The notes: generated by a model from the sequence alone, not told the origin. Shown: positions 46,857 through 61,070, counted from the first letter of the stretch. The stretch is 64,000 nucleotides of DNA from Terriglobia bacterium (GCA_020072965.1 JAIQFY010000017.1:17604-81603), one strand, 5' to 3'. Program-made: numbers and translations.

Positions 46857-46867
46857 GAAGTGGAAAA

Positions 46868-47113
46868 GTTGTCAGTTGTCGGTTCTCAGTTGTCAGTGAA
46901 GAGCGATCAGCCACCAACTACGGACAAATCTGGTCAACTCAGAAGGTGGAGGCTATTTTCTGATTTCAAACGTTTAAATAGGGTATCCGTTACTGCAAGA
47001 GTTCCGGGGCGACGTAGCTCAAAACTTGGCACACTACTGCGGGCCGGTCACTGAGTTTTAGATTTGATGGCTGACCGCTCTTCACTGACAACTGAGAACC
47101 GACAACTGATAAC
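46868..47113. repeat. CAGTTST element with 46-bp terminal inverted repeats (2 mismatches)
   Basis: 46868-46913 versus the reverse complement of 47068-47113. Confidence 0.9.
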
Positions 47114-47133
47114 TATTTAGACAGGAATGAAGA

Positions 47134-49686
47134 ATGGAAACCTTGCTTCAGGATCTTCGCTTCAGTCTTCGAATGCTGCTGAAGAATCCCGGCTTCACCC
47201 TGGTGGCGGTGATGACCTTGGCACTTGGTATCGGAGCGAACACCGCCATATTCAGCATTCTCAACGCGGTGTTGCTCCGAACTCTGCCCATCCCCCATCC
47301 CCAGGAACTGGTAGTCCTCGGAAACCCGGATGCGCATGGGATGGCCACTGGGAGCAACAGTGGAGAACAAGATCTTTTTTCCTACCATGAATTCGAGCAG
47401 CTTCGCGATCAGAACCAGGTATTTACGAATATCTTCGCGGCAGCCAGCTTCGTGGACTCCATGGACGGCTATATCGACGGGACGGGGTTGAGCGACCATG
47501 CTGAGCCTGTTAAGCCCAGCCTTGTTAGTGGCGCTTTTTTCTCCGTTCTGGGGGCGAAGCCCATTCTCGGCCGAACCTTTACACAGGAAGTCGATGAGGT
47601 TCCGGGCGTGAATGCCGTAGCACTGATCAGCTACGATTTTTGGAACCGGCGGTTTAACCGGGATCCCTCTGTCTTGGGGCGCTCCGTCCGACTTCGTCAA
47701 ACCACTTTTGAGATCATCGGAGTCACGGGCCCCGGATTTTTTGGTGAAACGGTCGGTGAATCGCCGGATCTGTGGGTGCCCTTGTCCATGCAAATGGCCG
47801 TGATCCCTGGAAAAAATCTCCTGGTCGATCCAAACAGCATTATGGAGAGGACCACGTGGATACAAATCATGGGGCGACTAAAACCCGGCGTGAGTATGGA
47901 ACAAGCCCGGGCTAGCATCAATGTGACGTTTCAACAGGTGCTCCAAACTAATGCCAGTTCGAGCCTAACAGCGGACCAGCGCAAGGAATGGATGGATCAG
48001 CGAATTGCCCTGACGAGCGCCAGAAAGGGCGCCTCGACTTTGAGGGGACGTTTTACCCATCCCCTCCGGGTCTTGATGGGATTGGTCGGACTTGTTCTGC
48101 TGATTGCCTGTGCCAATGTAGCCAACCTCCTGTTCTCGCGCTCGACCATGCGCCAGAAGGAAATTGCGATGAGGCTGGCATTGGGTGCGCGGCGCTCCCG
48201 CCTGGTGCGACAGCTTCTGACCGAAAGTATCCTGCTCGCGCTGGTCGGCGGAGGCGTCGGCCTTGTTCTTGCGCAATGGACCAACAGTTTGCTGGTTCGC
48301 CTGGCGTCCAGCGGGCCGGACCTGATCGCGATTGATCTTCATCCCGATGCTCGTATCCTCGGATTTACCCTTGCCCTCTCCACCCTCACTGGCATTTTGT
48401 TCGGATTGATGCCCTCTCTCCACTCGACACGGTTCGACTTGAGCTCCATCCTCAAAGCCAGCGGCCGGGGTGTCACAGCCGACCGCGGTCGCAGTGCTGT
48501 GTCCAGATTGCCCGTCGGAAAAATTCTCGTTGTGGCCCAGGTTTCCATTTCCCTGCTTCTTCTGGTGGTCGCGGGACTCTTCGTGAGGAGTTTTCAAAAA
48601 CTCGTGGACGTCGATCTCGGTTATAAACCTGACAAGTTCTTGTTGTTCCGAATCAACCCGCTTCAAAGTGGTTATAAAGGCGCCGCCCTGCTCCAATTTC
48701 ATCAGACCCTGCTGGAAAGAATCGCAGCGATTCCCGGCGTGCAGGGGGTAACCCTTTCCGAAAATGGTCTGTTCAGCCACACCGAATCCGCGGACCCCAT
48801 CTGGGTAGAGGGCTACACGCCAAAAACAGGCCCAGACAAGCATGCGCGATTTGACCAGGTGGGCCCACAATATTTCTCGACGGTGGGCATCCCTGTGTTA
48901 ATGGGTCGTGACGTTGATTCGCACGATGGCGGAAATGGTCCGCGGGTCGGCTGGATCAATCAGACCATGGCCCGATTCTATTTTCCAAACTCGAATCCGC
49001 TGGGGAAACACATCCGTGATGAGTACCCCGACAACCCCGGGGAATTTGAAATCGTGGGGGTCGTCTCCGATGCCAAGTACAACAGCCTCCGGGAAACGAC
49101 ACCGCGACGATTCTATGTCCCCTTCTTCAATCCGATCACCGAGGTGGCCGCCGCCAATTTCGAGATTCGCACCCGGGCGGAACCTGCTGCGGTGGCCGCT
49201 TCCCTCCGCGAAGTCGTGAAATCGATGGATCGATCCCTCCCCACACTGCATGTCCATACGATGACGGAGCTGGTTGATCAATCGTTGGCCCGGGAGCGTT
49301 TGATCACCAGTCTATCAGGCTTGTTTGGGGCCCTTGCGGTGTTGCTTGCCTGCATTGGTCTTTATGGCGTCATGGCATTCGCGGTGGCTCGAAGAACGAA
49401 TGAGATCGGTATTCGCATGGCCCTGGGGGCACAGGGTCGAAACGTGCTGGGGATCGTCATGCGGGAGACATTGGTGCTAGCTCTGCTCGGCATCGGCATC
49501 GGACTGCCGGTGGTATTTGCCTCCACGCGCCTGCTTTCAGGATTGCTCTTTGGGCTGGCGCCGGTCGACCCTGCAACAATATTCATGGCCACAATAGCGA
49601 TGGTTTCAGTTGCCGCCTTGGCCGGCTACCTCCCCGCCCACCGGGCAAGCCGGGTGGATCCCATGGTGGCGTTGAGGTATGAATGA
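47134..49686 (+). CDS. ADOP-type ABC permease, array copy 4
   Basis: METLLQDLRFSLRMLLKNPGF, RRTNEIGIRMALGA, PAHRASRVDPMVALRYE. Confidence 0.92.
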   Translation: METLLQDLRFSLRMLLKNPGFTLVAVMTLALGIGANTAIFSILNAVLLRTLPIPHPQELVVLGNPDAHGMATGSNSGEQDLFSYHEFEQLRDQNQVFTNIFAAASFVDSMDGYIDGTGLSDHAEPVKPSLVSGAFFSVLGAKPILGRTFTQEVDEVPGVNAVALISYDFWNRRFNRDPSVLGRSVRLRQTTFEIIGVTGPGFFGETVGESPDLWVPLSMQMAVIPGKNLLVDPNSIMERTTWIQIMGRLKPGVSMEQARASINVTFQQVLQTNASSSLTADQRKEWMDQRIALTSARKGASTLRGRFTHPLRVLMGLVGLVLLIACANVANLLFSRSTMRQKEIAMRLALGARRSRLVRQLLTESILLALVGGGVGLVLAQWTNSLLVRLASSGPDLIAIDLHPDARILGFTLALSTLTGILFGLMPSLHSTRFDLSSILKASGRGVTADRGRSAVSRLPVGKILVVAQVSISLLLLVVAGLFVRSFQKLVDVDLGYKPDKFLLFRINPLQSGYKGAALLQFHQTLLERIAAIPGVQGVTLSENGLFSHTESADPIWVEGYTPKTGPDKHARFDQVGPQYFSTVGIPVLMGRDVDSHDGGNGPRVGWINQTMARFYFPNSNPLGKHIRDEYPDNPGEFEIVGVVSDAKYNSLRETTPRRFYVPFFNPITEVAAANFEIRTRAEPAAVAASLREVVKSMDRSLPTLHVHTMTELVDQSLARERLITSLSGLFGALAVLLACIGLYGVMAFAVARRTNEIGIRMALGAQGRNVLGIVMRETLVLALLGIGIGLPVVFASTRLLSGLLFGLAPVDPATIFMATIAMVSVAALAGYLPAHRASRVDPMVALRYE

Positions 49687-49687
49687 A

Positions 49688-49871
49688 TCAGTTGTCAGTT
49701 CTCAGTTGCCAGTAAAAAGCTGTCAGCGTTCAGCTATCAGCCGTAATCGGATGCACATGACCAGAATAAAAGAAATACTCGAGTTTTTTGATATGTTTCA
49801 CTCTAATCCTAGCTGAGGGCTGAATGCTGATCGCTAACGGCTGGATTCTGAAAACTGAGAACTGACAACTC
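49688..49871. repeat. CAGTTST element with conserved core, forward orientation
   Basis: Core aatcggat...ctcgagttttttgatatgtttcactctaatcctagctga is homologous to 60180-60377. Confidence 0.85.
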
Positions 49872-49883
49872 TTTTTTGAAACG

Positions 49884-52313
49884 ATGATGGACCATCTACT
49901 GCAAGATCTCCGGCACGGCCTGCGATTGCTCGCCAAATCGCCCGGGTTCACCGTGGTCGCCGTGCTGACACTCGCGCTGGGTATCGGCGCGAACACGGCC
50001 ATTTTCAGCCTTGTCAATGCAGTCCTCCTGAACCCCCTTGCATTCCCCCGGGAAAGTCAACTGGTGGTCCTCACCGGCCAGACCCACCAGGAGAAGCGGA
50101 CCGGAATCTCCTACCCGGAATTCGAGGATTGGCGGAGACAGAGCCGGTCCTTCTCGGCCCTTTCCACGTGGATGACACAGAGTGTGAATCTGACGGGCGT
50201 CGATGAGCCCCAGCGCGTGCGCGGCGGATTTGTCTCCGCCAATTTTTTTGATCTGCTTGGCATCAGGCCGGCGCAAGGTCGCGCTTTCCTCAAGGGAGAG
50301 GATCAGCCGGGGAGGGATCGAGTGGCGGTCGTGAATTACAGCCTGTGGCAAACGCGTTTCGGGGCCGATCCCGGGTTAGTCGGAAAACAACTCATTCTCA
50401 ACGGTGCGGTGTTCACGGTGATTGGCATCCTCCCGCAGACATTCGAGTTCCCACTGGACAAGGATCGGGATGAAATCTGGATGCCCGTATCCAGCTATCC
50501 CAATTTTTCTCGAGAGCGCAGTACCTACAACCTCGTGGGGATCGGCCGCCTAGGGCCGGACGCCACCCTCAGCCAGGCACAAGTGGAGATGAATACCATC
50601 TCGCAACGACTCGCCGAGGAGTACCCAGACACCGACGGGCAGCGCCATGTAGTGGTCGCCCTCCTGCACGAAGTGGCCGTCGAAGAGGTGCGGACTTCCC
50701 TCCTGGTTCTGTTCGCAGCCGTGGGGTTCGTCCTGCTGATCGCGTGTGCCAACGTGTCGAATCTGATGCTTGCCCGTGCGGCCGGGAGACGAAAAGAAAT
50801 GGCATTGCGTTCCGCTCTGGGGGCAAGCCGGGGGAGGTTGATCCTCCAGATGCTCACGGAGAGCGTCCTGTTGTGGCTGGTGGGAGGGGCACTCGGTCTT
50901 CTAGCTGGCAATTGGGGCCTGCACGCTATTCAGATGACTGCCCCCTTGGATTTTCCCCCGGGCATTGTTCCTCACCTGGACGGTCTGGTCTTCGGTTTTA
51001 CCTGGTTGGTGGCAGTCCTCACGGGGATCCTCTCAGGGCTTGTGCCGGCTTTTCAATTCTCCCGTCCGGACTTGAACCACACGCTCAAAGAAGGCGGGAG
51101 AGTCTCAGATGAAGGATCGAGCCGGAAATGGTCGCAGAAATTGCTCCTGGTATCCCAAGTGGCGCTTTCGTTAGTGCTTCTGGTTGGCGCTGGACTGATG
51201 TTGAAGACAGTGATCCGGCTCTCAAGGACCGATCCGGGGTTCCACCCGGAAAATCTTCTGACTCTGGAGTATCGCCTGCCTGAAACCAAGTATCCCAAGG
51301 CGGCGGAACAATGGAATTTCCACCGCGAGGTGGTGGAGCGCGTGAGCGCTCTGCGGGGCGTGCAATCGGCGGCCGTCTCCCTGGGAATTCCCTTTAGCGG
51401 GAACTTTGGCTCGAATCCGGTCGTATTGCTGGATCGACCGGAGCCTCCTCCTGGAGAGGAGCCAATCGCCGAAACTAATCTGGCCGACACACATTACTTT
51501 GAAACCATGGGAATTCCACTCATCAAAGGTCGCTGGTTCTTTGAGCATGACGAAGCAGGAGCCCCCCACGTCGCGGTTATCAACCAGAACATGGCAAGAC
51601 GTTATTGGCCAGGACGGGACCCTGTCGGTCAGCAAATCCAGCTGCGCGATGAACTCTCCCTCTTTAGTAAGGAACCAGCTACCATCATCGGCATAGTCGA
51701 TAACGTCAAACAACAGAACCTGGAAGACCCTGCGAGCGCCCAGATCTATTTTGCCTTCAAGCAGAACCCAAACATATTCGCCACTCTGACGGTCCGGACC
51801 CAAGCCGATCCCATGCTGTTTGCCAACACAGTTCGCCGGGCAGTCTGGTCAGTGGACAAGGACCAGCCCATGTGGAAAGTGCGGTCGCTCGAATCGATGC
51901 TCGACCATTCCCTGGGTGCGCGACGGTATCTGATGTTTTTGCTCAGTATCTACGCAGCCCTGGCACTGGGCCTGGCGACGCTGGGAATCTACGGAGTCCT
52001 TTCTTACGCGGTGAACCAGCGTTTCCAGGAAATCGGCGTGCGGATGGCGTTGGGCGCCCAAACCGGAGACGTCCTTCGCCTGGTGATCCGGGATGGGATG
52101 CAACTGGTTCTTGCCGGGTTGGGGATCGGACTCCTCGGCGCACTTAGCTTGACACGATTGATGGCGGGATTGTTGTTCGAGGTGACCCCCACCGACCTGT
52201 CAACAATCGCAGCCGTGTCAGCACTTCTGGCGGGAGTTGCCTTCCTGGGATGTTATTTGCCGGCGCGCCGGGCAACGCGCGTCGATCCGATGGCGGTGCT
52301 AAGGTGCGAATAG
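49884..52313 (+). CDS. ADOP-type ABC permease, array copy 5
   Basis: MDHLLQDLRHGLRLL.KSPGF, RRATRVDPMAVLRCE. Confidence 0.92.
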   Translation: MMDHLLQDLRHGLRLLAKSPGFTVVAVLTLALGIGANTAIFSLVNAVLLNPLAFPRESQLVVLTGQTHQEKRTGISYPEFEDWRRQSRSFSALSTWMTQSVNLTGVDEPQRVRGGFVSANFFDLLGIRPAQGRAFLKGEDQPGRDRVAVVNYSLWQTRFGADPGLVGKQLILNGAVFTVIGILPQTFEFPLDKDRDEIWMPVSSYPNFSRERSTYNLVGIGRLGPDATLSQAQVEMNTISQRLAEEYPDTDGQRHVVVALLHEVAVEEVRTSLLVLFAAVGFVLLIACANVSNLMLARAAGRRKEMALRSALGASRGRLILQMLTESVLLWLVGGALGLLAGNWGLHAIQMTAPLDFPPGIVPHLDGLVFGFTWLVAVLTGILSGLVPAFQFSRPDLNHTLKEGGRVSDEGSSRKWSQKLLLVSQVALSLVLLVGAGLMLKTVIRLSRTDPGFHPENLLTLEYRLPETKYPKAAEQWNFHREVVERVSALRGVQSAAVSLGIPFSGNFGSNPVVLLDRPEPPPGEEPIAETNLADTHYFETMGIPLIKGRWFFEHDEAGAPHVAVINQNMARRYWPGRDPVGQQIQLRDELSLFSKEPATIIGIVDNVKQQNLEDPASAQIYFAFKQNPNIFATLTVRTQADPMLFANTVRRAVWSVDKDQPMWKVRSLESMLDHSLGARRYLMFLLSIYAALALGLATLGIYGVLSYAVNQRFQEIGVRMALGAQTGDVLRLVIRDGMQLVLAGLGIGLLGALSLTRLMAGLLFEVTPTDLSTIAAVSALLAGVAFLGCYLPARRATRVDPMAVLRCE

Positions 52314-52485
52314 GTAATAGGTAGTAGGTGATAGAAAATAGGTAATAGGTAATAGGTTCTAGGTTATTGGGAATTGGAGATAGCTGAAGGCCTTGGGTAT
52401 CCCGGAAGACCTGTCTGGGCTGGAAATACAAATGCGGCATGCAAATGGGTTTTTCTAACTCCTATCACCTGACACCTGGCACCTC
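52311..52485. repeat. GGTRATA heptamer inverted-repeat element
   Basis: Left arm taggtaataggtagtaggtgatag begins in the stop codon. Right arm cctatcacctgacacctggcacct lies before the next RBS. Confidence 0.8.
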
Positions 52486-52501
52486 TTTGAAAAAAGGAAA
52501 A

Positions 52502-54121
52502 ATGAACATCTCGACGACAATGATTCCCAACCTCACCAAACCTAAAGCCTTGATTGCCGATGACCAGACCGATGTTCTGGAAGCGTTGCGGCTGTTATTA
52601 AAGGGAGAAGGGTTTCACACTGAAACTGTCACCTCTCCCGCGGCGGTCATGACGGCTCTTAGAGACCAGAATTTTGACATCCTTCTGATGGACCTCAATT
52701 ATGCCCGGGACACGACCTCCGGACAGGAGGGATTGAACCTCCTCTCTCAAATCCGCGAACTGGATGCCACCCTTCCGGTCGTGGTAATGACCGCCTGGGG
52801 AACCATCGAGTTGGCGGTTGAAGCCATGCATCAGGGGGTTCAGGATTTTGTCCAGAAGCCCTGGGAAAACGAGCGCTTGATGAGCATCCTCCGCACCCAG
52901 GTTGATCTCGGACGGTCACGGCGCAAGTTAGTTCACCTGAAGACTGCAACCAAGAGCCTAAGCGAAAAAATCCGGGAAGTGTCCGAGCTCAAACCGTTAA
53001 TGGAGATTGTCTCGGCCCACTTGCAAAGTGCTTTGGAGTGCGAATCCGTGGTGGTGTTCACACGGGCACCCCATGAACCCGCCTTCACAGTGGCCTCCTC
53101 GGTCGGCTTTCCCGAGGACGATGTCGGCCGCTTGAAATTTGAACTCAGTAGCCCCATCTTTGAACTCCTGGAAAATCTGGTCCATGTTGAAGGACGGGAC
53201 TTCCCTTCCCACGAGAAATCCAAGTTGGAAGAGATCAAGGCTGCCCTGCTTGTCCCGGTCCTCATGGAAGGGGCCCTGGTGGGTTTCCTTGCCGTGGGGT
53301 GTAAGAGAACGGGCCAGAAATATGATGAGCAGGACAGTAAATTTTTATCCACCATCGCAGGGCAGATCGCCGCCGCCGTCAATCATTTGCGCTGGCAGGA
53401 GCAGGAGAGGGAGTTCAAGGAAGCCCGGGAGATCCAGCAAGGTTTGTTGCCCAAGGAGATTCCACAGATCGCCGGATTTGAAATATCCGGGGCGTGGCAA
53501 CCCGCGCGCGCTGTGGGTGGGGATTATTTTGATGTTCTCAAACTTAGCGAGACGCAAATCGCGCTGTGCATCGCGGACGTGGTGGGCAAGGGCATGCCTG
53601 CGGCCCTACTGATGTCTAATGTCCAGGCCGCAGTCAAAGCCTTCGCGTCAGATTTGGTTTCACCCAAGGAATTGTGCGCCAAGGTGAATCGCGTGATCAG
53701 CGGCAACATTGCCCCCGAGAGGTTTATCACCTCCTTTTACTGCGTCCTTTATGCCCGCTCAAAGAAACTTGTTTATACCAACGCCGGACACAACGCCCCG
53801 ATACTGCTGCACCGGGACGGGACTCTTCTTCGCCTGACAAAAGGAGGCGCGGTGCTGGGCGTGTTTCGCGACGGCCACTACCAGGAGGGCGAGGTCGAGT
53901 TGACCCCCGGCGATCGCCTCCTGCTCTTCACGGATGGGGTGACCGAATTGACCAACCCGGACGGTGACGAATTCGGGGAGAACCGCCTCATTGAACTGTT
54001 GCGTGGAAACCATCATCTGGGTGCAAGTGAACTGCAGCAGAAGGTGATGAATGCCATCGTGGAATTCAGCGGGGGAGAATTTCAGGACGATGCCACCATG
54101 CTCGTGCTGGCGGTAGGATGA
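52502..54121 (+). CDS. Response regulator REC-GAF-PP2C (SpoIIE/RsbU-like) phosphatase
   Basis: REC: IADDQ, LMDLNYARDTTSGQEG, MTAW, QKP. Central GAF-like segment. PP2C: VGGDYFD, IADVVGKG, TDGVTE, QDDAT. Start 52502 after aaggaa. Confidence 0.88.
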   Translation: MNISTTMIPNLTKPKALIADDQTDVLEALRLLLKGEGFHTETVTSPAAVMTALRDQNFDILLMDLNYARDTTSGQEGLNLLSQIRELDATLPVVVMTAWGTIELAVEAMHQGVQDFVQKPWENERLMSILRTQVDLGRSRRKLVHLKTATKSLSEKIREVSELKPLMEIVSAHLQSALECESVVVFTRAPHEPAFTVASSVGFPEDDVGRLKFELSSPIFELLENLVHVEGRDFPSHEKSKLEEIKAALLVPVLMEGALVGFLAVGCKRTGQKYDEQDSKFLSTIAGQIAAAVNHLRWQEQEREFKEAREIQQGLLPKEIPQIAGFEISGAWQPARAVGGDYFDVLKLSETQIALCIADVVGKGMPAALLMSNVQAAVKAFASDLVSPKELCAKVNRVISGNIAPERFITSFYCVLYARSKKLVYTNAGHNAPILLHRDGTLLRLTKGGAVLGVFRDGHYQEGEVELTPGDRLLLFTDGVTELTNPDGDEFGENRLIELLRGNHHLGASELQQKVMNAIVEFSGGEFQDDATMLVLAVG

Positions 54122-54126
54122 AAAGA

Positions 54127-54316
54127 AGTTATCAGTGGTCAGTGGTCAGTGGTCAGCAACTGGCAGTAACCGATCAGCTATCGGCTGTTAGGCATGAATA
54201 GAACATATCAAAAGACTTAAGCACTTCGTTGATTCTGATCATCTCAATCCGATTCCATCTGATAGTCGAATGCTGACAGCTGCTTACTCGCAACCGACCA
54301 CTGGCCACTGACAACT
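54127..54316. repeat. CAGTGGT/CAGTTST element with the conserved core in reverse orientation
   Basis: The reverse complement of about 54195-54256 is ggaatcggattgagatgatcagaatcaacgaagtgcttaagtcttttgatatgttctattc, which aligns with the 60180 core. Confidence 0.8.
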
Positions 54317-54330
54317 TTTTGGAGACAATG

Positions 54331-56835
54331 ATGGAATCGTTATTCCAGGATCTTCGCTACGCCCTCCGGATGCTGTTCAAGAACCCCGGCTTCACTGCGG
54401 TGGCCGTATTGACCCTGTCGCTCGGGATCGGCGCCAATACGGCGATCTTTTCTCTCACCGATCAGGTTCTTTTCCGGCTTCTCCCGGTCGTGCGTCCGGG
54501 GGAACTCGTGATCCTGCGCTCGCCCGGGCCGAATCCGGGGCACACCTGGAGCGATAGCGATGATACGGCCTCCTTCTCTTACCCGTTATACAAGGACCTG
54601 CGAGAACGCAATACGGTGCTTGCCGGTGTTCTGGCCCGCTTCCCGACTTCGTTGAACGTGGCGGGAGATGGACAAACGGAACGTGCAAGCGGCGAGCTGG
54701 TGTCCGGAAATTACTTCGAATTGCTAGGAGTGCGCCCGGCTCTGGGCCGCGTCCTGACTCCGGCGGACGAGAGCGCGCCCGGGGCAAATCCGGTGGCAGT
54801 GTTGAGTTATGGTTACTGGACACGCCGGTTTGGCGGGGATCCCGGCATTCTGAACAAAGTCCTGAATGTCAATGGAACGCCGCTCACCGTGGTCGGTGTG
54901 TCTCGCCCCGGTTTTGCTGGAATTCAGATCGGTCAGTTGCCGGATATCTTTGTTCCCATCACGATGAAACCGATGATGACGCCCAATTGGGACGGGCTGA
55001 ATGATCTCAAGGATCATTGGGTCGCGATCCTCGGTCGACTGAGGCCGGGTATGACGCGACCTCAAGCGGAAGCGGGTTTGTTGCCGGTTTATCGATCCAT
55101 TCTTGAATCCGAGTTGCCCCTGATGGGCCTGTCTGCGACAACGAAAAGTCGGTTTCTCCAAAAGCAAATCCTACTGGGCGAGGGATCCCACGGCAGACCC
55201 GTTCTACAGAATGACGCTCAGCGGCCCTTGCTGGTCCTGATGGCGATGGTGGGACTGGTGCTGCTGATCGCTTGCGCCAACCTCGCAAACCTCCAGTTGG
55301 CGCACGGGCTGGCGAGGCAGCGCGAGGTCGCCGTGCGGGCCGCACTGGGCGCTGGACGCCTCCGCATGGTCCGTCAGCTGTTGACAGAGAGTGTGCTGCT
55401 GGCGCTTGCCGGAGGCGCCACCGGTCTGCTGGTTGCTTCGTGGATGCTCGAAACCTTCATTGGAGCGATTCCCCAGGGACTGGGAGCGGTGGGGCTTGAG
55501 GCCCGACTGGATCCTCGGGTAATAGGATTCACCCTGGGCCTTTCGGTTGGGACAGCTATCCTGTTCGGTTTAATCCCCGCCCTGCGGGCGACACGAATCG
55601 ATTTGCAAAGCACGCTCCAGGGACAAGGGGCCGCTGTCTCGAACAGCTTGTCCCACGTGCGCTTGCGGAAAGGATTGATCGTTTCACAGGTGGCGCTCAC
55701 GGCGGTGCTGCTCATCGTGGCCGGATTATTTGCCCGGAGTCTTGACAACTTGAAACGATTATCCCTGGGTGTGCGCATCGATCACGTGATCCAGTTTTCC
55801 ATCGCGCCCGAATTGAATCGCTATACCCCACCGCAGACCCTGTCTCTGTTTGACCGCATGAGAGCAGGCATCGGCGCTTTGCCCGGCGTGCGTTCGGTCA
55901 GCACTGCGGAGGTTCCCGTGTTCGATAACAGCGATATGGGGTCCAATATCACGGTGCAAGGATATGCGCCCCATGAAGAGGAAGACATGCATGTGTTCAA
56001 GAACTGGGTGGGACCCGATTATTTCTCGACCATGGGCACCCCCTTGATTGCGGGCCGTGAGTTCAATGAAGGCGACAGGGCGGAAGCCCCGAAGGTTGCT
56101 ATCATAAATGAGACGATGGCTCGTCGTTTTTTTGCGGGCCGCAACCCCATCGGCGGCCGATTCGCTTTCGGGGCCGGCCACAACACACTTCCGGACATCG
56201 AAATTGTCGGTCTGGTGAAAGACAGCAAACACACCAGCCTGCGGAGCGAAATCCATCCGTTCGTGTGCCTTCCTTATGAGCAGGACACAAAGCTGGGAGG
56301 GATCACGTTTTATGTGCGGACGGCGATGGAGCCGGCTGCAATGCTCGAAACACTGCGCCACACCGTCGAACGCTTCGACCCGAATCTGCCGCTGTATGAT
56401 CTCAAGACCCTTCAAAATAAGGTGGACGAGTCGCTCTTCAGCGACCGGCTGTTGACGTTTCTTTCTTTGTGCTTTGGGGTACTGGCTGCTCTACTGGCGG
56501 CCGTGGGGCTGTACGGGGTGATGACCTACACGGTAACACGCCGTACGCGCGAGATCGGCATGCGCGTCGCACTCGGCGCCACCCGCGAAAATGTGGCCTG
56601 GTTGATTTTGCGGGAAGTCGCACGCATGACGGGCGTGGGACTCACGATCGGCCTGGCAGCAGCGTTCGCCCTCGGCCGGTTGATTGAGTCGCAGTTGTTT
56701 GGCATCCGGGCCAGCGACCCTTTGGTCTTCGTCCTGGCGGCAGTGCTGCTTGCGGCGGTGGCTCTTTTGGCCGGCTATCTGCCGGCACATCGGGCAACGC
56801 GGGTGGATCCCATGGTGGCATTGAGATGCGAGTAA
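54331..56835 (+). CDS. ADOP-type ABC permease, array copy 6
   Basis: MESLFQDLRYALRML.KNPGF, PAHRATRVDPMVALRCE. Confidence 0.92.
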   Translation: MESLFQDLRYALRMLFKNPGFTAVAVLTLSLGIGANTAIFSLTDQVLFRLLPVVRPGELVILRSPGPNPGHTWSDSDDTASFSYPLYKDLRERNTVLAGVLARFPTSLNVAGDGQTERASGELVSGNYFELLGVRPALGRVLTPADESAPGANPVAVLSYGYWTRRFGGDPGILNKVLNVNGTPLTVVGVSRPGFAGIQIGQLPDIFVPITMKPMMTPNWDGLNDLKDHWVAILGRLRPGMTRPQAEAGLLPVYRSILESELPLMGLSATTKSRFLQKQILLGEGSHGRPVLQNDAQRPLLVLMAMVGLVLLIACANLANLQLAHGLARQREVAVRAALGAGRLRMVRQLLTESVLLALAGGATGLLVASWMLETFIGAIPQGLGAVGLEARLDPRVIGFTLGLSVGTAILFGLIPALRATRIDLQSTLQGQGAAVSNSLSHVRLRKGLIVSQVALTAVLLIVAGLFARSLDNLKRLSLGVRIDHVIQFSIAPELNRYTPPQTLSLFDRMRAGIGALPGVRSVSTAEVPVFDNSDMGSNITVQGYAPHEEEDMHVFKNWVGPDYFSTMGTPLIAGREFNEGDRAEAPKVAIINETMARRFFAGRNPIGGRFAFGAGHNTLPDIEIVGLVKDSKHTSLRSEIHPFVCLPYEQDTKLGGITFYVRTAMEPAAMLETLRHTVERFDPNLPLYDLKTLQNKVDESLFSDRLLTFLSLCFGVLAALLAAVGLYGVMTYTVTRRTREIGMRVALGATRENVAWLILREVARMTGVGLTIGLAAAFALGRLIESQLFGIRASDPLVFVLAAVLLAAVALLAGYLPAHRATRVDPMVALRCE

Positions 56836-56837
56836 AC

Positions 56838-57049
56838 CAGTTGTCAGTTGCCAGTTCTCAGTTCTCAGTTGAAAGTCGCAAAATGCTAGTGTTCAGCTAT
56901 CAGCGATCAGCCTTCAGCTTTGGAAAGGGCGCATGATGAGTCATGACTACGCTCTGACTCTTGTTTGATTACGGAGACGGCCAAGAGAATCTGACTGTGT
57001 GTCGGTACTTCACTGAGAACTGGCAACTGACAACTGCTTCTGACAACTC
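56838..57049. repeat. CAGTTST element, second core subfamily
   Basis: tagtgttcagctatcagcg...ctgactctt...gattac...caagagaatc is shared with 59560-59750. Confidence 0.8.
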
Positions 57050-57062
57050 TTCGGAGGTTACG

Positions 57063-59498
57063 ATGGAAACCTTGTTCCAGGATCTTCGCTACGGCTTCCG
57101 GATGCTGCTGAAGAATCCCGGGTTCACCGCTGTGGGCATTTTGACCCTGGCGCTCGGAATTGGCGCCAACACGGCAATCTTCAGTGTCGCGGATGCATTC
57201 CTGCTGAAGCCGCTTTCGATCCCCAACGAGAATCGCATGGTGGTCGCCCTCGAAGTGGGGCCCAATCAGAGGGGCGATGACACCTCAAGTGTCTCTCCTG
57301 CCAACTTTGAAGACTGGAAGAGTCAAGCCAAGACCTACGACGCCATGGCTGCTTATGCTTGGGCGAATGTCAATCTGACGGGTCAGGGAGAGCCCGAGAA
57401 GGTCCAAGGATTCGAGGTCTCCCCTAATTTCTTCGGGGTCGTGGGAATGCAGCCAGCCCTGGGTCGAGTTTTCTTACCCGAGGAGGAAAATCCCGGGCAT
57501 GAACAGGTGGCGATTCTCAGTCATGGGCTCTGGCAGCGCCGGTACGCTTCTGACCCCAGCATCGTTGGAAAGAACGTGACGATTGACGGAAGGACTTACG
57601 CGGTCATCGGAGTCATGCCTGCAGGGTTCAACTTCCCCACCACCGTGGAGTTGTGGATGCCGCTCGCACTCGACTCGAAGGCCCGGAGCGTTCGAAATGC
57701 ACACTACCTGTTTGCGCTGGGCCTGCTCAAACCCGGAATGTCTACCTCCTCCGCACGAGCCGAGTTGAAGACGATTGCGGCGCAGTTGGCACAGGCTTAC
57801 CCGACCACAAACAAGGGTTGGTCAGTCCGTGTCATGTCCATGCGGGATTTTGTGACCGAGGACTTAACGCGGCAGTATACCCTGATGTCAGTCGTCGCCG
57901 TCGCCTTTGTGCTCCTGATCGCTTGCGCCAACGTCGCCAATCTTCAGTTCGCCCGGGCCACAAGCCGCCAGAGAGAGATGGCCGTGCGGGTGTCCCTCGG
58001 CGCAGGTCGATGGCGGATCATGCGGCAACTTTTGACAGAAAGCGTCGCGGTGTCTCTGCTGGGTGCGGCACTCAGCTTGCTCCTGGCCCAGTGGGGCATC
58101 GAACTTATCCTGGCACACATGCCTCCCGAGACCGCCAAGTTTATCGCCGCGTGGAATCACATCAGCCTTGATTACCGGGCCTTTTTGTACACTTTGACCG
58201 TGGCCCTGCTTACCGGCATCCTGTCCGGCCTTCTCCCAGCTTTTCAGAGCTCAAAGCCGGATCTCAACGAAGCCTTGAAGGAAGGCGGACGCAGTGCAAC
58301 AGCAGGCCAATCGAAACATCGTCTGCGAAGTTTCCTGGTCATGGCCGAAGTGGCGTTGGCCCTGATTCTCCTGGTGGGATCGGGGTTGATGGTGAAGAGC
58401 TTTAAAGCCCTGCTGAACATGAATCAGGGACTCGATCCGAATGGTGCCCTCACCCTGCGCATCGATCTTCCTCCGGCCAAATACAAGACCCCGCCGCAAA
58501 GGGCGGCCTTCTATGAACAGGTGCTGCAAAATCTGAAGATGATCCCCGGAGTCGAGGCTGCCGCCACCGCCACCAATATTCCCTATGGGAATTACGGGAG
58601 CAACGCGCTTATCAGCGTGGAAGGGAGGGTGTCAGTTAATGCCTCAGACCTTCAGTTGGCCACGAACCAGGTCATTGGTGCAGACTATTTTCGATTGATG
58701 CACATCCCGCTTCAAGCAGGCCGTGAGTTCACCGGCCAGGATGGGACAGATTCTCCTCCCGTCGCGCTCGTGAGCGAGTTGCTGGCACGCAGGTACTGGC
58801 CCAATCAAAACCCGATCGGGAAACGAGTGAAGTTGGGGCTCGAGAACAGCATTCACCCCTGGATGACCGTGGTGGGTGTGGTCGGCGACGTCAAGTATGA
58901 GTGGAGTGAGCGGGATCCGAGACCCACGCTCTATTATCCTTTTCAACAAGCTCCTGTACTGAACTCGTACGTGGCGATCCGCTCCCAGGGGGATCCCAGG
59001 CAATTCATTTCGGCGGTGCGGGCTGCGATTGCGCGGGTCGATTCCCAACAACCCCTCTCCGACATTAAACCGTTGGACAAGGTGATTTCAGATTCCACGG
59101 TCGGCATTGCCTATGTCGCCGTCATCATGAGCGTCCTTGCAGTCATCGCGTTAATTCTTTCAACCGTGGGGGTCTTTGGGGTGGTGTCTTATCAGGTGAC
59201 GGAGCGAATCCATGAAATTGGAATCCGCATGGCCCTCGGCGCCAACCCGCGCGATGTATTGGGGATGGTTGTTGCCCGGGGGGCCTGGTTGACATTCACG
59301 GGTTTGGGAATTGGTCTCATTTTCTCGATCGGACTCGCACGGCTGCTCGCCAGCCTGATTTTTGGAATCGAGGCGATGGATTGGCTCACTTTCGGAAGTC
59401 TTTCTTTGACGCTCGCGCTGGTGGCCATGCTGGCCAGCTATCTGCCTGCACGACGCGCCACCCGGGTGGACCCGGTGGTCGCGCTGCGACATGAGTGA
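57063..59498 (+). CDS. ADOP-type ABC permease, array copy 7
   Basis: RBS ggagg, [36 protein letters not shown]. Confidence 0.92.
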   Translation: METLFQDLRYGFRMLLKNPGFTAVGILTLALGIGANTAIFSVADAFLLKPLSIPNENRMVVALEVGPNQRGDDTSSVSPANFEDWKSQAKTYDAMAAYAWANVNLTGQGEPEKVQGFEVSPNFFGVVGMQPALGRVFLPEEENPGHEQVAILSHGLWQRRYASDPSIVGKNVTIDGRTYAVIGVMPAGFNFPTTVELWMPLALDSKARSVRNAHYLFALGLLKPGMSTSSARAELKTIAAQLAQAYPTTNKGWSVRVMSMRDFVTEDLTRQYTLMSVVAVAFVLLIACANVANLQFARATSRQREMAVRVSLGAGRWRIMRQLLTESVAVSLLGAALSLLLAQWGIELILAHMPPETAKFIAAWNHISLDYRAFLYTLTVALLTGILSGLLPAFQSSKPDLNEALKEGGRSATAGQSKHRLRSFLVMAEVALALILLVGSGLMVKSFKALLNMNQGLDPNGALTLRIDLPPAKYKTPPQRAAFYEQVLQNLKMIPGVEAAATATNIPYGNYGSNALISVEGRVSVNASDLQLATNQVIGADYFRLMHIPLQAGREFTGQDGTDSPPVALVSELLARRYWPNQNPIGKRVKLGLENSIHPWMTVVGVVGDVKYEWSERDPRPTLYYPFQQAPVLNSYVAIRSQGDPRQFISAVRAAIARVDSQQPLSDIKPLDKVISDSTVGIAYVAVIMSVLAVIALILSTVGVFGVVSYQVTERIHEIGIRMALGANPRDVLGMVVARGAWLTFTGLGIGLIFSIGLARLLASLIFGIEAMDWLTFGSLSLTLALVAMLASYLPARRATRVDPVVALRHE

Positions 59499-59500
59499 AG

Positions 59501-59750
59501 AGTTCTCAGTTGTCAGTTCTCAGTTGTCAGTTGACTGAAAGCAGTTTCCAGTTGCCATTTCTCAGTTGACAGCCGGGAGGTGTTAGTGTTGAGCTATCAG
59601 CGTTCAGCGATGAGAACCACGCAAGGTGAGTTAGAGCTTGCTTCTGACTCTTCCGAATCGATTACCACCGTCGTCAAGGGAATCAGCCAGGAGTGGGGGC
59701 TCTTCACTGGCAACTGAGAACTGACAACTGAGAACTGATTTCCGGCAACT
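59501..59750. repeat. CAGTTST element, second core subfamily
   Basis: Left arm gttctcagttgtcagttctcagttgtcagttg, right arm actggcaactgagaactgacaactgagaactg. Confidence 0.85.
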
Positions 59751-59774
59751 GTCTTTCAGATCGGAGATTCCTCC

Positions 59775-60179
59775 ATGCGAACCTCTCGCGAGATCGGATA
59801 TGCATTGCTGCGGGTGACCCTGGGTGTCTTGTTTGCGACTTATGGAATCGGAAAATTCCGGATGGGGATCGGCAACTTCGCCGGCGTGATAGAAAAAGAG
59901 TTCACCGGCAAACTCCCGATGGTCCTGGTCTCCCCGTTTGGTTACATTCTCCCTTTCGCTGAACTGCTGGTCGGTGTCCTGCTGACCCTCGGGCTCTTCA
60001 CTTCCCTCGCACTCATCCTGGCCGGGCTGCTGATGATTGCGCTAACGTTTGGGATGGCGCTCACGGGGCAGGCTCCCGTTGTCGCGCAAAACCTCACCTA
60101 CGTCCTCGTCATTTTTATTCTTTTCTGGGCCTTGGAAAGTAATGGATATTCCCTGGATCGACTGCGGCAGGGTAGGTAA
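59775..60179 (+). CDS. DoxX family membrane protein
   Basis: LLRVTLGVLF..YG.GKF, LPFAELLVG.LL.LGLFT. Four TM segments. Confidence 0.8.
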   Translation: MRTSREIGYALLRVTLGVLFATYGIGKFRMGIGNFAGVIEKEFTGKLPMVLVSPFGYILPFAELLVGVLLTLGLFTSLALILAGLLMIALTFGMALTGQAPVVAQNLTYVLVIFILFWALESNGYSLDRLRQGR

Positions 60180-60377
60180 CAGTTGTCAGTTGTCAGTTCT
60201 CAGTTGTCAGTGAGGAGCTGTCAGCATTCAGCTATTAGCCATCAGCTGGAATCGGATTCAAATGACTGGAAACAACGAAGTGCTCGAGTCTCTTGATATG
60301 TCTCACTCTAATCATAGCTGACTGCTGATAGCAGATAGCTGACGGCTAGTTGCTGACAACTGAGAACTGACAACTGT
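60180..60377. repeat. CAGTTST element with conserved core, forward orientation
   Basis: cagttgtcagttgtcagttctcagttgtcagt...ctcgagtctcttgatatgtctcactctaatcatagctga...ctgacaactgagaactgacaactg. Confidence 0.85.
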
Positions 60378-60401
60378 ATTTCCAACTTCACCCCCGGGGG
60401 A

Positions 60402-61070
60402 ATGATGATCAAACTCGTTGATTTAGAGAAGTTCTATGCTCATGGCGTATCAAAGACGTTCGTGCTGCGGCGCGTGAGTTTTGAAGTTCAGGAGGGAGAG
60501 TTCGTCTCGATCATGGGCCCGTCGGGCGCGGGCAAATCCACGGTGCTCCATATCCTGGGGATGTACGACAGCGACTGGAGCGGCGAATTCTATTTTCTGG
60601 ATCAGCCGATTCACAAGCTCGACAAGAAGAAGCGGGCGGAATTCAACAAGAAGTATGTCGGCTTCGTTTTTCAAAGCTATCACCTGCTCGATAACCTGAC
60701 GGTCTATGAAAATCTCGAAATTCCCCTGTCTTACCGGGACGTCAAGAAGAGTCAACGAGAGAGCATCGTCTGCGATGTTCTGGACCGGTTTCAAATTGTC
60801 GGAAAGAAGGATCTGTTCCCCAATCAACTTTCCGGCGGACAGCAGCAACTGGTTGCCGTCGCCCGGGCGGTGATTGCCAATCCCAAAGTCATTCTCGCCG
60901 ACGAGCCCACGGGAAACCTTCACTCCAGCCAGGGCGAGGAGATCATGGAACTTTTCAAGAAGCTGAATTCCGAGGGAACCACTATCATCCAAGTCACTCA
61001 CTCCGAAAGGAACGCCTCTTACGGCAGCCGCATCATCAATCTCCGCGACGGATGGGTCGTGAATGATTAG
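60402..61070 (+). CDS. ABC ATP-binding protein (MacB/LolD-type), second copy
   Basis: [30 protein letters not shown]. Confidence 0.95.

Follow-up and report, generated by a model that had tools for sequence, protein, structure and literature searches.

Several kinds of intergenic repeats and palindromes are known from bacteria. The cyanobacterial STRR repeats are heptamer tandem-repeat elements. The Correia/NEMIS elements of Neisseria and the ERIC/IRU elements of enterobacteria are imperfect palindromes of ~100-200 bp that lie in transcribed intergenic regions in both orientations, occur with variants of an internal segment and are thought to act as RNA stem-loops in mRNA processing and stability; both are present in tens to hundreds of dispersed near-identical copies, the Correia elements with TA target duplications. 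A segment between close inverted repeats can also be flipped by a crossover inside the repeats or by template switching at a quasipalindrome, which is a general mutational mechanism. TAACTGA repeats have been reported from Beggiatoaceae, Cyanobacteria and Bacteroidetes (PMC4679880), and heptameric repeats from Xanthomonas and Nostoc (PMC4692102); in the published TAACTGA sets the repeats are nearly all direct and sit immediately ahead of start codons, one set of 170 being inverted (PMC4679880). Here we describe hairpin elements in a window of 64,000 nucleotides (C19:17604-81603) from the 5.9-Mb genome (108 contigs, hereafter G000; contig C19 spans 103 kb) of an uncultured soil acidobacterium. 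Their arms consist of tandem 7-nt words and enclose non-repetitive interiors, which we call cores A, B and C. Comparison with congeneric genomes shows that, at orthologous gaps between the genes of one transporter array, the core A module can be present, absent, replaced by another core, or inverted. Like the STRR and TAACTGA repeats, these elements are intergenic arrays of 7-nt words with a patchy distribution across taxa (CAGTTSY arrays occur in 19 of 151 genomes of the class), and like the TAACTGA repeats they use words with a CTGA/TCAG core (CAACTGA, GAACTGA, TAGCTGA, CACCTGA). Unlike the latter, they consist of arrays paired in inverted orientation, which fold into hairpins of 100-300 nt with a conserved interior, and shared invertible cores are not described in the published accounts of heptamer repeats (PMC4679880, PMC4692102).

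According to a sequence-only reading of this DNA, the loops at 49745-49816 and 60248-60321 share a core of ~60 nt that the loop at 54174-54256 carries on the opposite strand, the elements at 56838-57049 and 59560-59750 share a second one, and both are true families rather than independent low-complexity expansions. Against a control of 500 dinucleotide shuffles (local alignment score 13.7 ± 2.3), the first two loops aligned with a score of 79 (z=28), and alignments to the reverse complement of 54174-54256 reached 51 and 63 (z=17 and 22). On its forward strand this loop gave 12 and 15, which is the chance level. Since only the reverse complement scored above chance, this copy does lie on the opposite strand, and a core similarity so far above the shuffles bears out that the elements are true families. 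The size of the shared sequence had been underestimated: because the alignment runs beyond the core (~70 nt) into inner arms of TCAGCNN heptamers, the shared unit measures ~135-150 nt. The outer arms around core A are site-specific, being made of CAGTTSY, of CAGTGGT or, in relatives, of GGTGTCA words. In element E49 (Table 1), CAGTTSY arms at ~49690-49713 and 49848-49870 surround TCAGCNN arms at ~49718-49744 and 49817-49842. In E54 the entire module is inverted, inner arms too, and the outer arms are a compensated variant in which CAGTGGT is partnered by ACCACTG; such compensated arms are a point of likeness to quasipalindrome template switching. The second subfamily, core B, was also recovered, at lower strength. 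Its two loops in the window (56919-57005 and 59600-59700) match weakly (z=3.7), in common blocks and the left inner arm, and a third copy just beyond the window (C19:84727-84815, or 67124-67212 in window coordinates) matches with z=8.6 and is inverted as a unit together with its one-sided inner array. All five elements with core A or B fold as long hairpins far better than shuffled sequences do, E49 at -76.9 kcal/mol (z=-7.5) and E54 at -74 kcal/mol (z=-4.3). They have terminal inverted repeats in the form of arms of 53-61 nt that are 79-82% complementary (53 nt and 79% in E49), built of tandem heptamers and not of a unique terminal repeat.

An exact-pattern scan of one genome per species (185,579 species) found core A in two congeneric metagenome-assembled genomes (MAGs) only. 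Three Terriglobia genomes of the same genus (G001-G003) carry it, in a syntenic gene cluster with nucleotide identities of 77-90% over the genes, 80-90% over the flanks of the gaps and 58-75% at fourfold sites. The orthologous gaps were extracted by their flanks and their interiors were then classified; G001 is represented by a 4-kb contig, so that one of its gaps (49687-49883) could be compared. Two gaps hold core A in opposite orientations. At 60180-60401, the reverse complement of the G003 element aligns to that of G000 at 168 of ~200 positions, and the match covers the idiosyncrasies of the inner arms and the derived 'TGTCTCAC' variant; between the forward strands, the match is confined to the outermost heptamers and the flanks. 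At 49687-49883, G001 (contig C224) and G002 (contig C9) show 93% identity over 4 kb and stay collinear as far as the outer arms, inside which the interior is inverted. This interior is identical over ~135 nt except for one 14-nt (two-heptamer) indel, and the inverted segment is bordered by a ~10-nt inverted match, CGGGTGYCAG. No 135-nt window in the coding flanks of the same pair is free of differences (mean 7.4, minimum 1). Since the flanks and outer arms are collinear while the interiors are inverted, these inversions took place in situ, the crossovers lying within the arms; one at least, that between G001 and G002, is very recent. The asymmetry of the breakpoints leaves mosaic arms in which the CAGTTSY layer is one-sided in G001, G002 and G003. 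Thus, the proposal that the cores invert by recombination between the arms is upheld by two orthologous gaps with opposite orientation and breakpoints in the heptamer arms. The G003 orthologue of E54, in turn, has the same orientation as in G000, with 88% identity between the cores.

Table 1. Hairpin elements, genes, orthologous gaps and PF05635 cassettes; coordinates are those of the window unless a contig is named, and A(+) or A(-) gives the orientation of core A.
Feature	Coordinates	Strand	Remarks
Hairpin E46, core C	46864..47117	+	core = 146-nt interior 46918-47063
Hairpin E49, core A '+'	49687..49875	+	core 49745-49816; between two ADOP permease genes
Hairpin E54, core A '-'	54127..54316	-	core 54174-54256; between REC-GAF-PP2C and ADOP permease genes
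Hairpin E56, core B	56838..57049	+	core ~56919-57005; TCAGCNN array on left side only
Hairpin E59, core B	59501..59751	+	core ~59600-59700
Hairpin E60, core A '+'	60180..60377	+	core 60246-60321; between DoxX/MauE-like and ABC ATPase genes
ADOP family duplicated permease gene	47134..49686	+	TIGR03434, 924 bits
ADOP family duplicated permease gene	49884..52313	+	TIGR03434, 986 bits
Response-regulator receiver - GAF - PP2C (SpoIIE) phosphatase gene	52502..54121	+
ADOP family duplicated permease gene	54331..56835	+	TIGR03434, 953 bits
ADOP family duplicated permease gene	57063..59498	+	TIGR03434, 981 bits
Small DoxX/MauE-like membrane protein gene	59775..60179	+
MacB/LolD-type ABC transporter ATPase gene	60402..61070	+
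Gap	49687-49883		G000 A(+); G001 A(-); G002 A(+); G003 unrelated
Gap	54122-54330		G000 A(-); G002 core C; G003 A(-)
Gap	56836-57062		G000 core B; G002 A(+); G003 A(+)
Gap	59499-59774		G000 core B; G002 A(+), diverged; G003 A(+)
Gap	60180-60401		G000 A(+); G002 unrelated; G003 A(-)
PF05635 cassette	C15:15840-16443		TCAGCTR
PF05635 cassette	C52:67300-67882		CAGTTSY
PF05635 cassette	C19:86679-87256		ATAGGKK
PF05635 cassette	C40:10288-10861
PF05635 cassette	C40:13298-13925
PF05635 cassette	C40:1300-1900
PF05635 cassette	C5:1798-2313
PF05635 cassette	C5:55547-56078

The interiors were also compared pairwise over seven gaps in three genomes (n=19). They were homologous and in the same orientation in 5 comparisons, inverted in 1 and unrelated or ambiguous in 13; on these counts, the interior is mainly replaced, and inversion recurs as a lesser change. 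A heptamer-armed hairpin is present in every compared gap, whatever its interior. Replacement by another core can be read from Table 1: the gap of E56 holds core A instead of core B in both G002 and G003, and core C also occupies, in G002, the gap orthologous to 54122-54330. The left arm of E59 is orthologous to the left arm of the G003 element, where it runs on into core A. These comparisons show that modules have been exchanged between neighbouring gaps over evolutionary time.

The gaps belong to a co-directional array at 47-61 kb that comprises four ADOP permease genes, a REC-GAF-PP2C regulator gene, a DoxX/MauE-like gene and a MacB-type ABC ATPase gene; the close relatives of the host are uncultured Terriglobia (Acidobacteriota) MAGs. 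All gaps in the array are occupied by a long imperfect hairpin with arms of tandem 7-nt words, which extends nearly from the stop codon of one gene to the ribosome-binding site of the next. The hairpin that follows the second permease gene (52314-52501) has AATAGGT words in its left arm and CACCTGR-type words in its right arm. In the relatives the same gap has GGTGTCA arms on both sides and interiors that differ; those of G002 and G003 may be mutually inverted, the signal being weak.

A profile of 10 core A copies found only three matches in the 5.9-Mb genome, even at E<=10, all of them the known copies and all within 10.5 kb; copies in the same genome differ from each other by 12-40%. Core A had no match in two scans of JGI metagenome contigs, nor among plasmids or phages, and a plasmid or phage origin was rejected for want of any match in these searches. 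Since the genome holds three local copies and the sequence is found elsewhere in congeners only, core A is genus-restricted, strictly local and lineage-specific to this transporter array, and not a dispersed repeat. No direct repeats of the kind left by target-site duplication were seen at the arm ends of E49, E54 and E60, where the fuzzy ends of the elements make this a weak test. In these respects core A is unlike the Correia and ERIC elements, with which the hairpins share an imperfect palindromic build, occurrence in both orientations and variants of an internal segment: it has three local copies, tandem-heptamer arms and no visible target-site duplication, and no Rfam family matched the elements, either at the gathering score or at E<=1.

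What the core itself encodes, if anything, was approached in several ways. A 19-codon frame (MTGNNEVLESLDMSHSNHS*) runs through core A (49758-49816 and 60261-60321) and is open in ~7 of 10 copies. Core variability is flat over the three codon positions (0.175, 0.155 and 0.190) and the substitutions are mostly non-synonymous; because of this flat profile the core is taken to be non-coding, and a coding reading of the frame, which is probably not a gene, was rejected. Promoter prediction, which was limited to the sigma-70 type, found no such promoter in any core, and no terminator-like site fits the elements. In the alignment of core A modules, 89.7% of the cells are paired, against 21-44% in slid registers, and a short helix reaches into the core. 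Covariation in the module was no better than in shuffles (44 of 500 reached the observed score), and the fold is therefore supported by conservation only. Orthologous pairs of core A are 81, 88, 85, 74 and 70% identical, against ~64% at fourfold sites; three of the five pairs lie above the neutral expectation, which suggests that core A may be under some constraint or may have a lower mutation rate.

Hairpins of this type occur throughout the genome. Runs of period 7 number 553 in G000, where periods 8 and 9 give 3 and 2; paired heptamer-arm hairpins number at least 133, 127 of which are intergenic (95 between co-directional, 20 between convergent and 9 between divergent gene pairs). Within each word family the same word stands in the 5' arm, which holds for 131 of the 133 elements (for instance GAAGTCA 21:1, GTCAGTT 16:1 and AAATTCC 14:0), and this near-strict polarity argues against arms arising independently on the spot. 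The sense RNA is more stable than the antisense RNA in 38 of 61 co-directional elements (38 vs 23, p=0.006); this modest evidence of RNA-level selection suggests that the hairpins matter as RNA. They are not classic terminators, because T-runs after the stem are rare: five or more T within 10 nt follow 3 of the 61 co-directional hairpins, and the antisense side is alike. Two further pairs of hairpins, each 5-6 kb apart, have a common interior, inverted in C14:3680-3940 and C14:9858-10173 (84% over 138 nt) and direct in C48:4290-4495 and C48:9687-9910 (80% over 97 nt), so local core sharing is not peculiar to the permease array. A loop family of ~50 nt, found on five contigs (C10:17265-17374, C68:131129-131247, C43:19332-19470, C81:6628-6775 and C52:51385-51516), behaves more like a mobile repeat, unlike core A.

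Some heptamer hairpins enclose genes. G000 has 13 matches to PF05635 (the '23S rRNA intervening-sequence protein'), and the eight strongest single-domain PF05635 genes all lie inside hairpins with inverted heptamer arrays, each with a word of its own (Table 1). One of these cassettes lies on the same contig, outside the window at 69076-69653 in its coordinates and 9 kb downstream of E60. Like the PF05635 cassettes, the elements described here have an interior between inverted heptamer arrays, and the C15 and C52 cassettes use the very words of the core A elements (TCAGCTR and CAGTTSY). Unlike these cassettes and the rRNA intervening sequences, they are gene-less and are found between protein genes instead of within rRNA. 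A blastn search with word size 7 gave no match between cores A, B and C and the interiors of PF05635 cassettes, 8 from G000 and 27 from the congeners. The idea of a core as the remnant of such a cassette was thus not borne out in any of the 35 interiors: the architectural link between heptamer hairpins and PF05635 cassettes holds, as co-occurrence, and a derivation of the cores from the cassettes is without support.

We consider it rather probable that the elements are gene-less, heptamer-armed foldback modules that are spread locally and flipped by arm-mediated recombination or template switching, and not a regulated switch. Cores A, B and C would be the non-coding interior modules of foldback elements whose arms are tandem 7-nt words, and the elements as a whole would be gene-less counterparts of the PF05635 cassettes with the same kinds of arms. 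Neighbouring hairpins with common heptamer arrays, together with the inverted arms of each element, could provide the homology for recombination, gene conversion or template switching, by which a module may be copied into a nearby hairpin in either orientation or flipped on site; the inverted-repeat nature of the arms would account for both orientations. On this view, the palindromic build itself would have produced the orientation differences as a side effect over evolutionary time, and these would not be the states of a regulated on/off switch. What would set this locus apart from inverted-repeat inversion in general is its repeated action on one conserved module at several neighbouring loci. 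Transcription of the co-directional permease array probably turns the elements into long intercistronic RNA stem-loops.

Several points weigh against this account. Gene conversion cannot explain interiors that occur only once in the genome, and most of the orthologous comparisons fall in the unrelated or ambiguous class. Neither a donor nor a recipient intermediate was observed, nor was a responsible enzyme identified. The identical interior of G001 and G002 within flanks of 93% identity could instead reflect strong constraint, recent gene flow or a recently mobile unit. The conservation of core A (81, 85 and 88%) above the fourfold level of ~64% hints at a function, and if that function depends on orientation, inversions would not be neutral. 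Finally, all four compared genomes are draft assemblies, and at least G001 and G002 are metagenome-assembled.

The sequence-only reading had also offered insertion in both orientations in the manner of a miniature inverted-repeat transposable element (MITE). Core A with its TCAGCNN arms would then be a non-autonomous element, moved in either orientation by a trans-acting enzyme that targets hairpin loops or arms. Part of this stands: modules are found in different gaps by species and in either orientation, nested in gap-specific outer arms (GGTGTCA in G002, CAGTTSY in G000). An interior that is the same in G001 and G002, in opposite orientations, despite 7% divergence of the flanks would also suit a mobile unit, as would the fixed word polarity, which suggests descent from masters over local origin, the PF05635 cassettes with the same arm words, and the one loop family that has spread across contigs. 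The part that fell is the dispersal and the machinery. There are only three copies, none of them elsewhere in the genome, and their divergence speaks against a recent burst; the arm ends show no visible target-site duplications, no element-specific transposase was found, the cores have no detectable likeness to the interiors of PF05635 cassettes, and PF05635 is not a known transposase. The genome does hold an unusually high number of Y1 (IS200/RAYT-type) transposase domains (PF01797, 36 matches, for example C66:4619-4960 and C22:32052-32393), but a period-7 run lies within 400 nt of 1 of these 36 genes, against 11% of all genes. Our elements resemble REP/REPIN sequences (PMC3116915) in being intergenic, hairpin-forming repeat pairs with a variable spacer in a host rich in Y1 domains. 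They differ from the REP/REPIN-RAYT system (PMC3116915) in that heptamer arrays do not flank the Y1 genes and the arms are tandem words and not a single REP palindrome; this lack of association between Y1 genes and heptamer runs led us to reject the REPIN/RAYT reading. Given copies that are few and local, and the lack of visible target-site duplications and of an autonomous element to match, a classical MITE is unsupported, and we regard MITE-like insertion as unlikely.

A bolder possibility, which we offer as a long shot, is that the heptamer arrays are recombination sites of an unrecognised system of cassette exchange and inversion, possibly partnered by the four-helix-bundle proteins of PF05635, that actively swaps and flips small non-coding modules at fixed intergenic slots. 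Core A would then be functional and orientation-sensitive and would tune expression in the ADOP array, a form of phase variation without a classical invertase.

The other suggestion of the sequence-only reading, a switch between permease genes, fared poorly. Here, frequent flips within a population would change the expression of the adjacent permease, regulator or ATPase genes. As in invertons such as fimS and hin, inverted repeats bound a segment, which here is conserved above the fourfold-site level, and there are two independent in-situ inversions in four genomes, one of them without substitutions since the flip. Unlike invertons, the elements have no sigma-70-like internal promoter and no site-specific recombinase nearby. 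Tyrosine and serine recombinases (PF00589 and PF00239) number six and one in the whole genome, and none is found on the 103-kb contig C19, which thus encodes no local invertase; nor do the hairpins bear the classic terminator signature. The arms are imperfect, with exact inverted matches of ~10 nt at the breakpoints, two species agree in their orientation at 54122-54330, interior replacement is much commoner than inversion (13 vs 1 of 19), and the two orientations of the core were observed between species only. For these reasons a regulated switch is unsupported and, in our judgement, very improbable.

Passive inheritance, in which the cores were duplicated along with tandem permease genes and then diverged without movement between gaps, has in its favour that every copy lies in a single array of paralogous ADOP genes. 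The genes next to the three copies are not homologous (upstream an ADOP permease, the REC-PP2C regulator and the DoxX-like gene; downstream two ADOP permeases and the ABC ATPase), orthologous gaps have different cores by species, and one module is inverted in place, so that this explanation is already contradicted and we give it hardly any credence. An assembly artefact at the hairpins is the least credible source of the orientation differences, for although at least G001 and G002 are short-read MAGs and de Bruijn assemblers cannot settle the direction of a loop flanked by perfect inverted repeats that exceed k, the arms here are imperfect and shorter than 65 nt, the exact inverted matches at the breakpoints (10-25 nt) fall well short of the k values in the contig names (k=127 and k=141), and E54 in G000 is inverted with diverged, compensated arms in an orientation independently reproduced in G003.

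Heptamer repeats have been described from intergenic regions of several phyla and still lack an accepted explanation. This locus gives a concrete picture of how they change: every gap keeps its hairpin, whereas the interior, from one species of the genus to another, is conserved, replaced or flipped. The arms emerge as the active substrate of recombination. A module of ~150 nt at three sites in four genomes is a tractable case in which to measure the rate of palindrome rearrangement, and equally the effect of orientation on the neighbouring genes. Should the elements turn out to be sites of RNA processing, or exchangeable cassettes with a link to PF05635 proteins, the finding would bear on a widespread and so far unexplained class of bacterial repeats; otherwise, it still shows that shared inverted hairpin cores need not imply transposition or switching.

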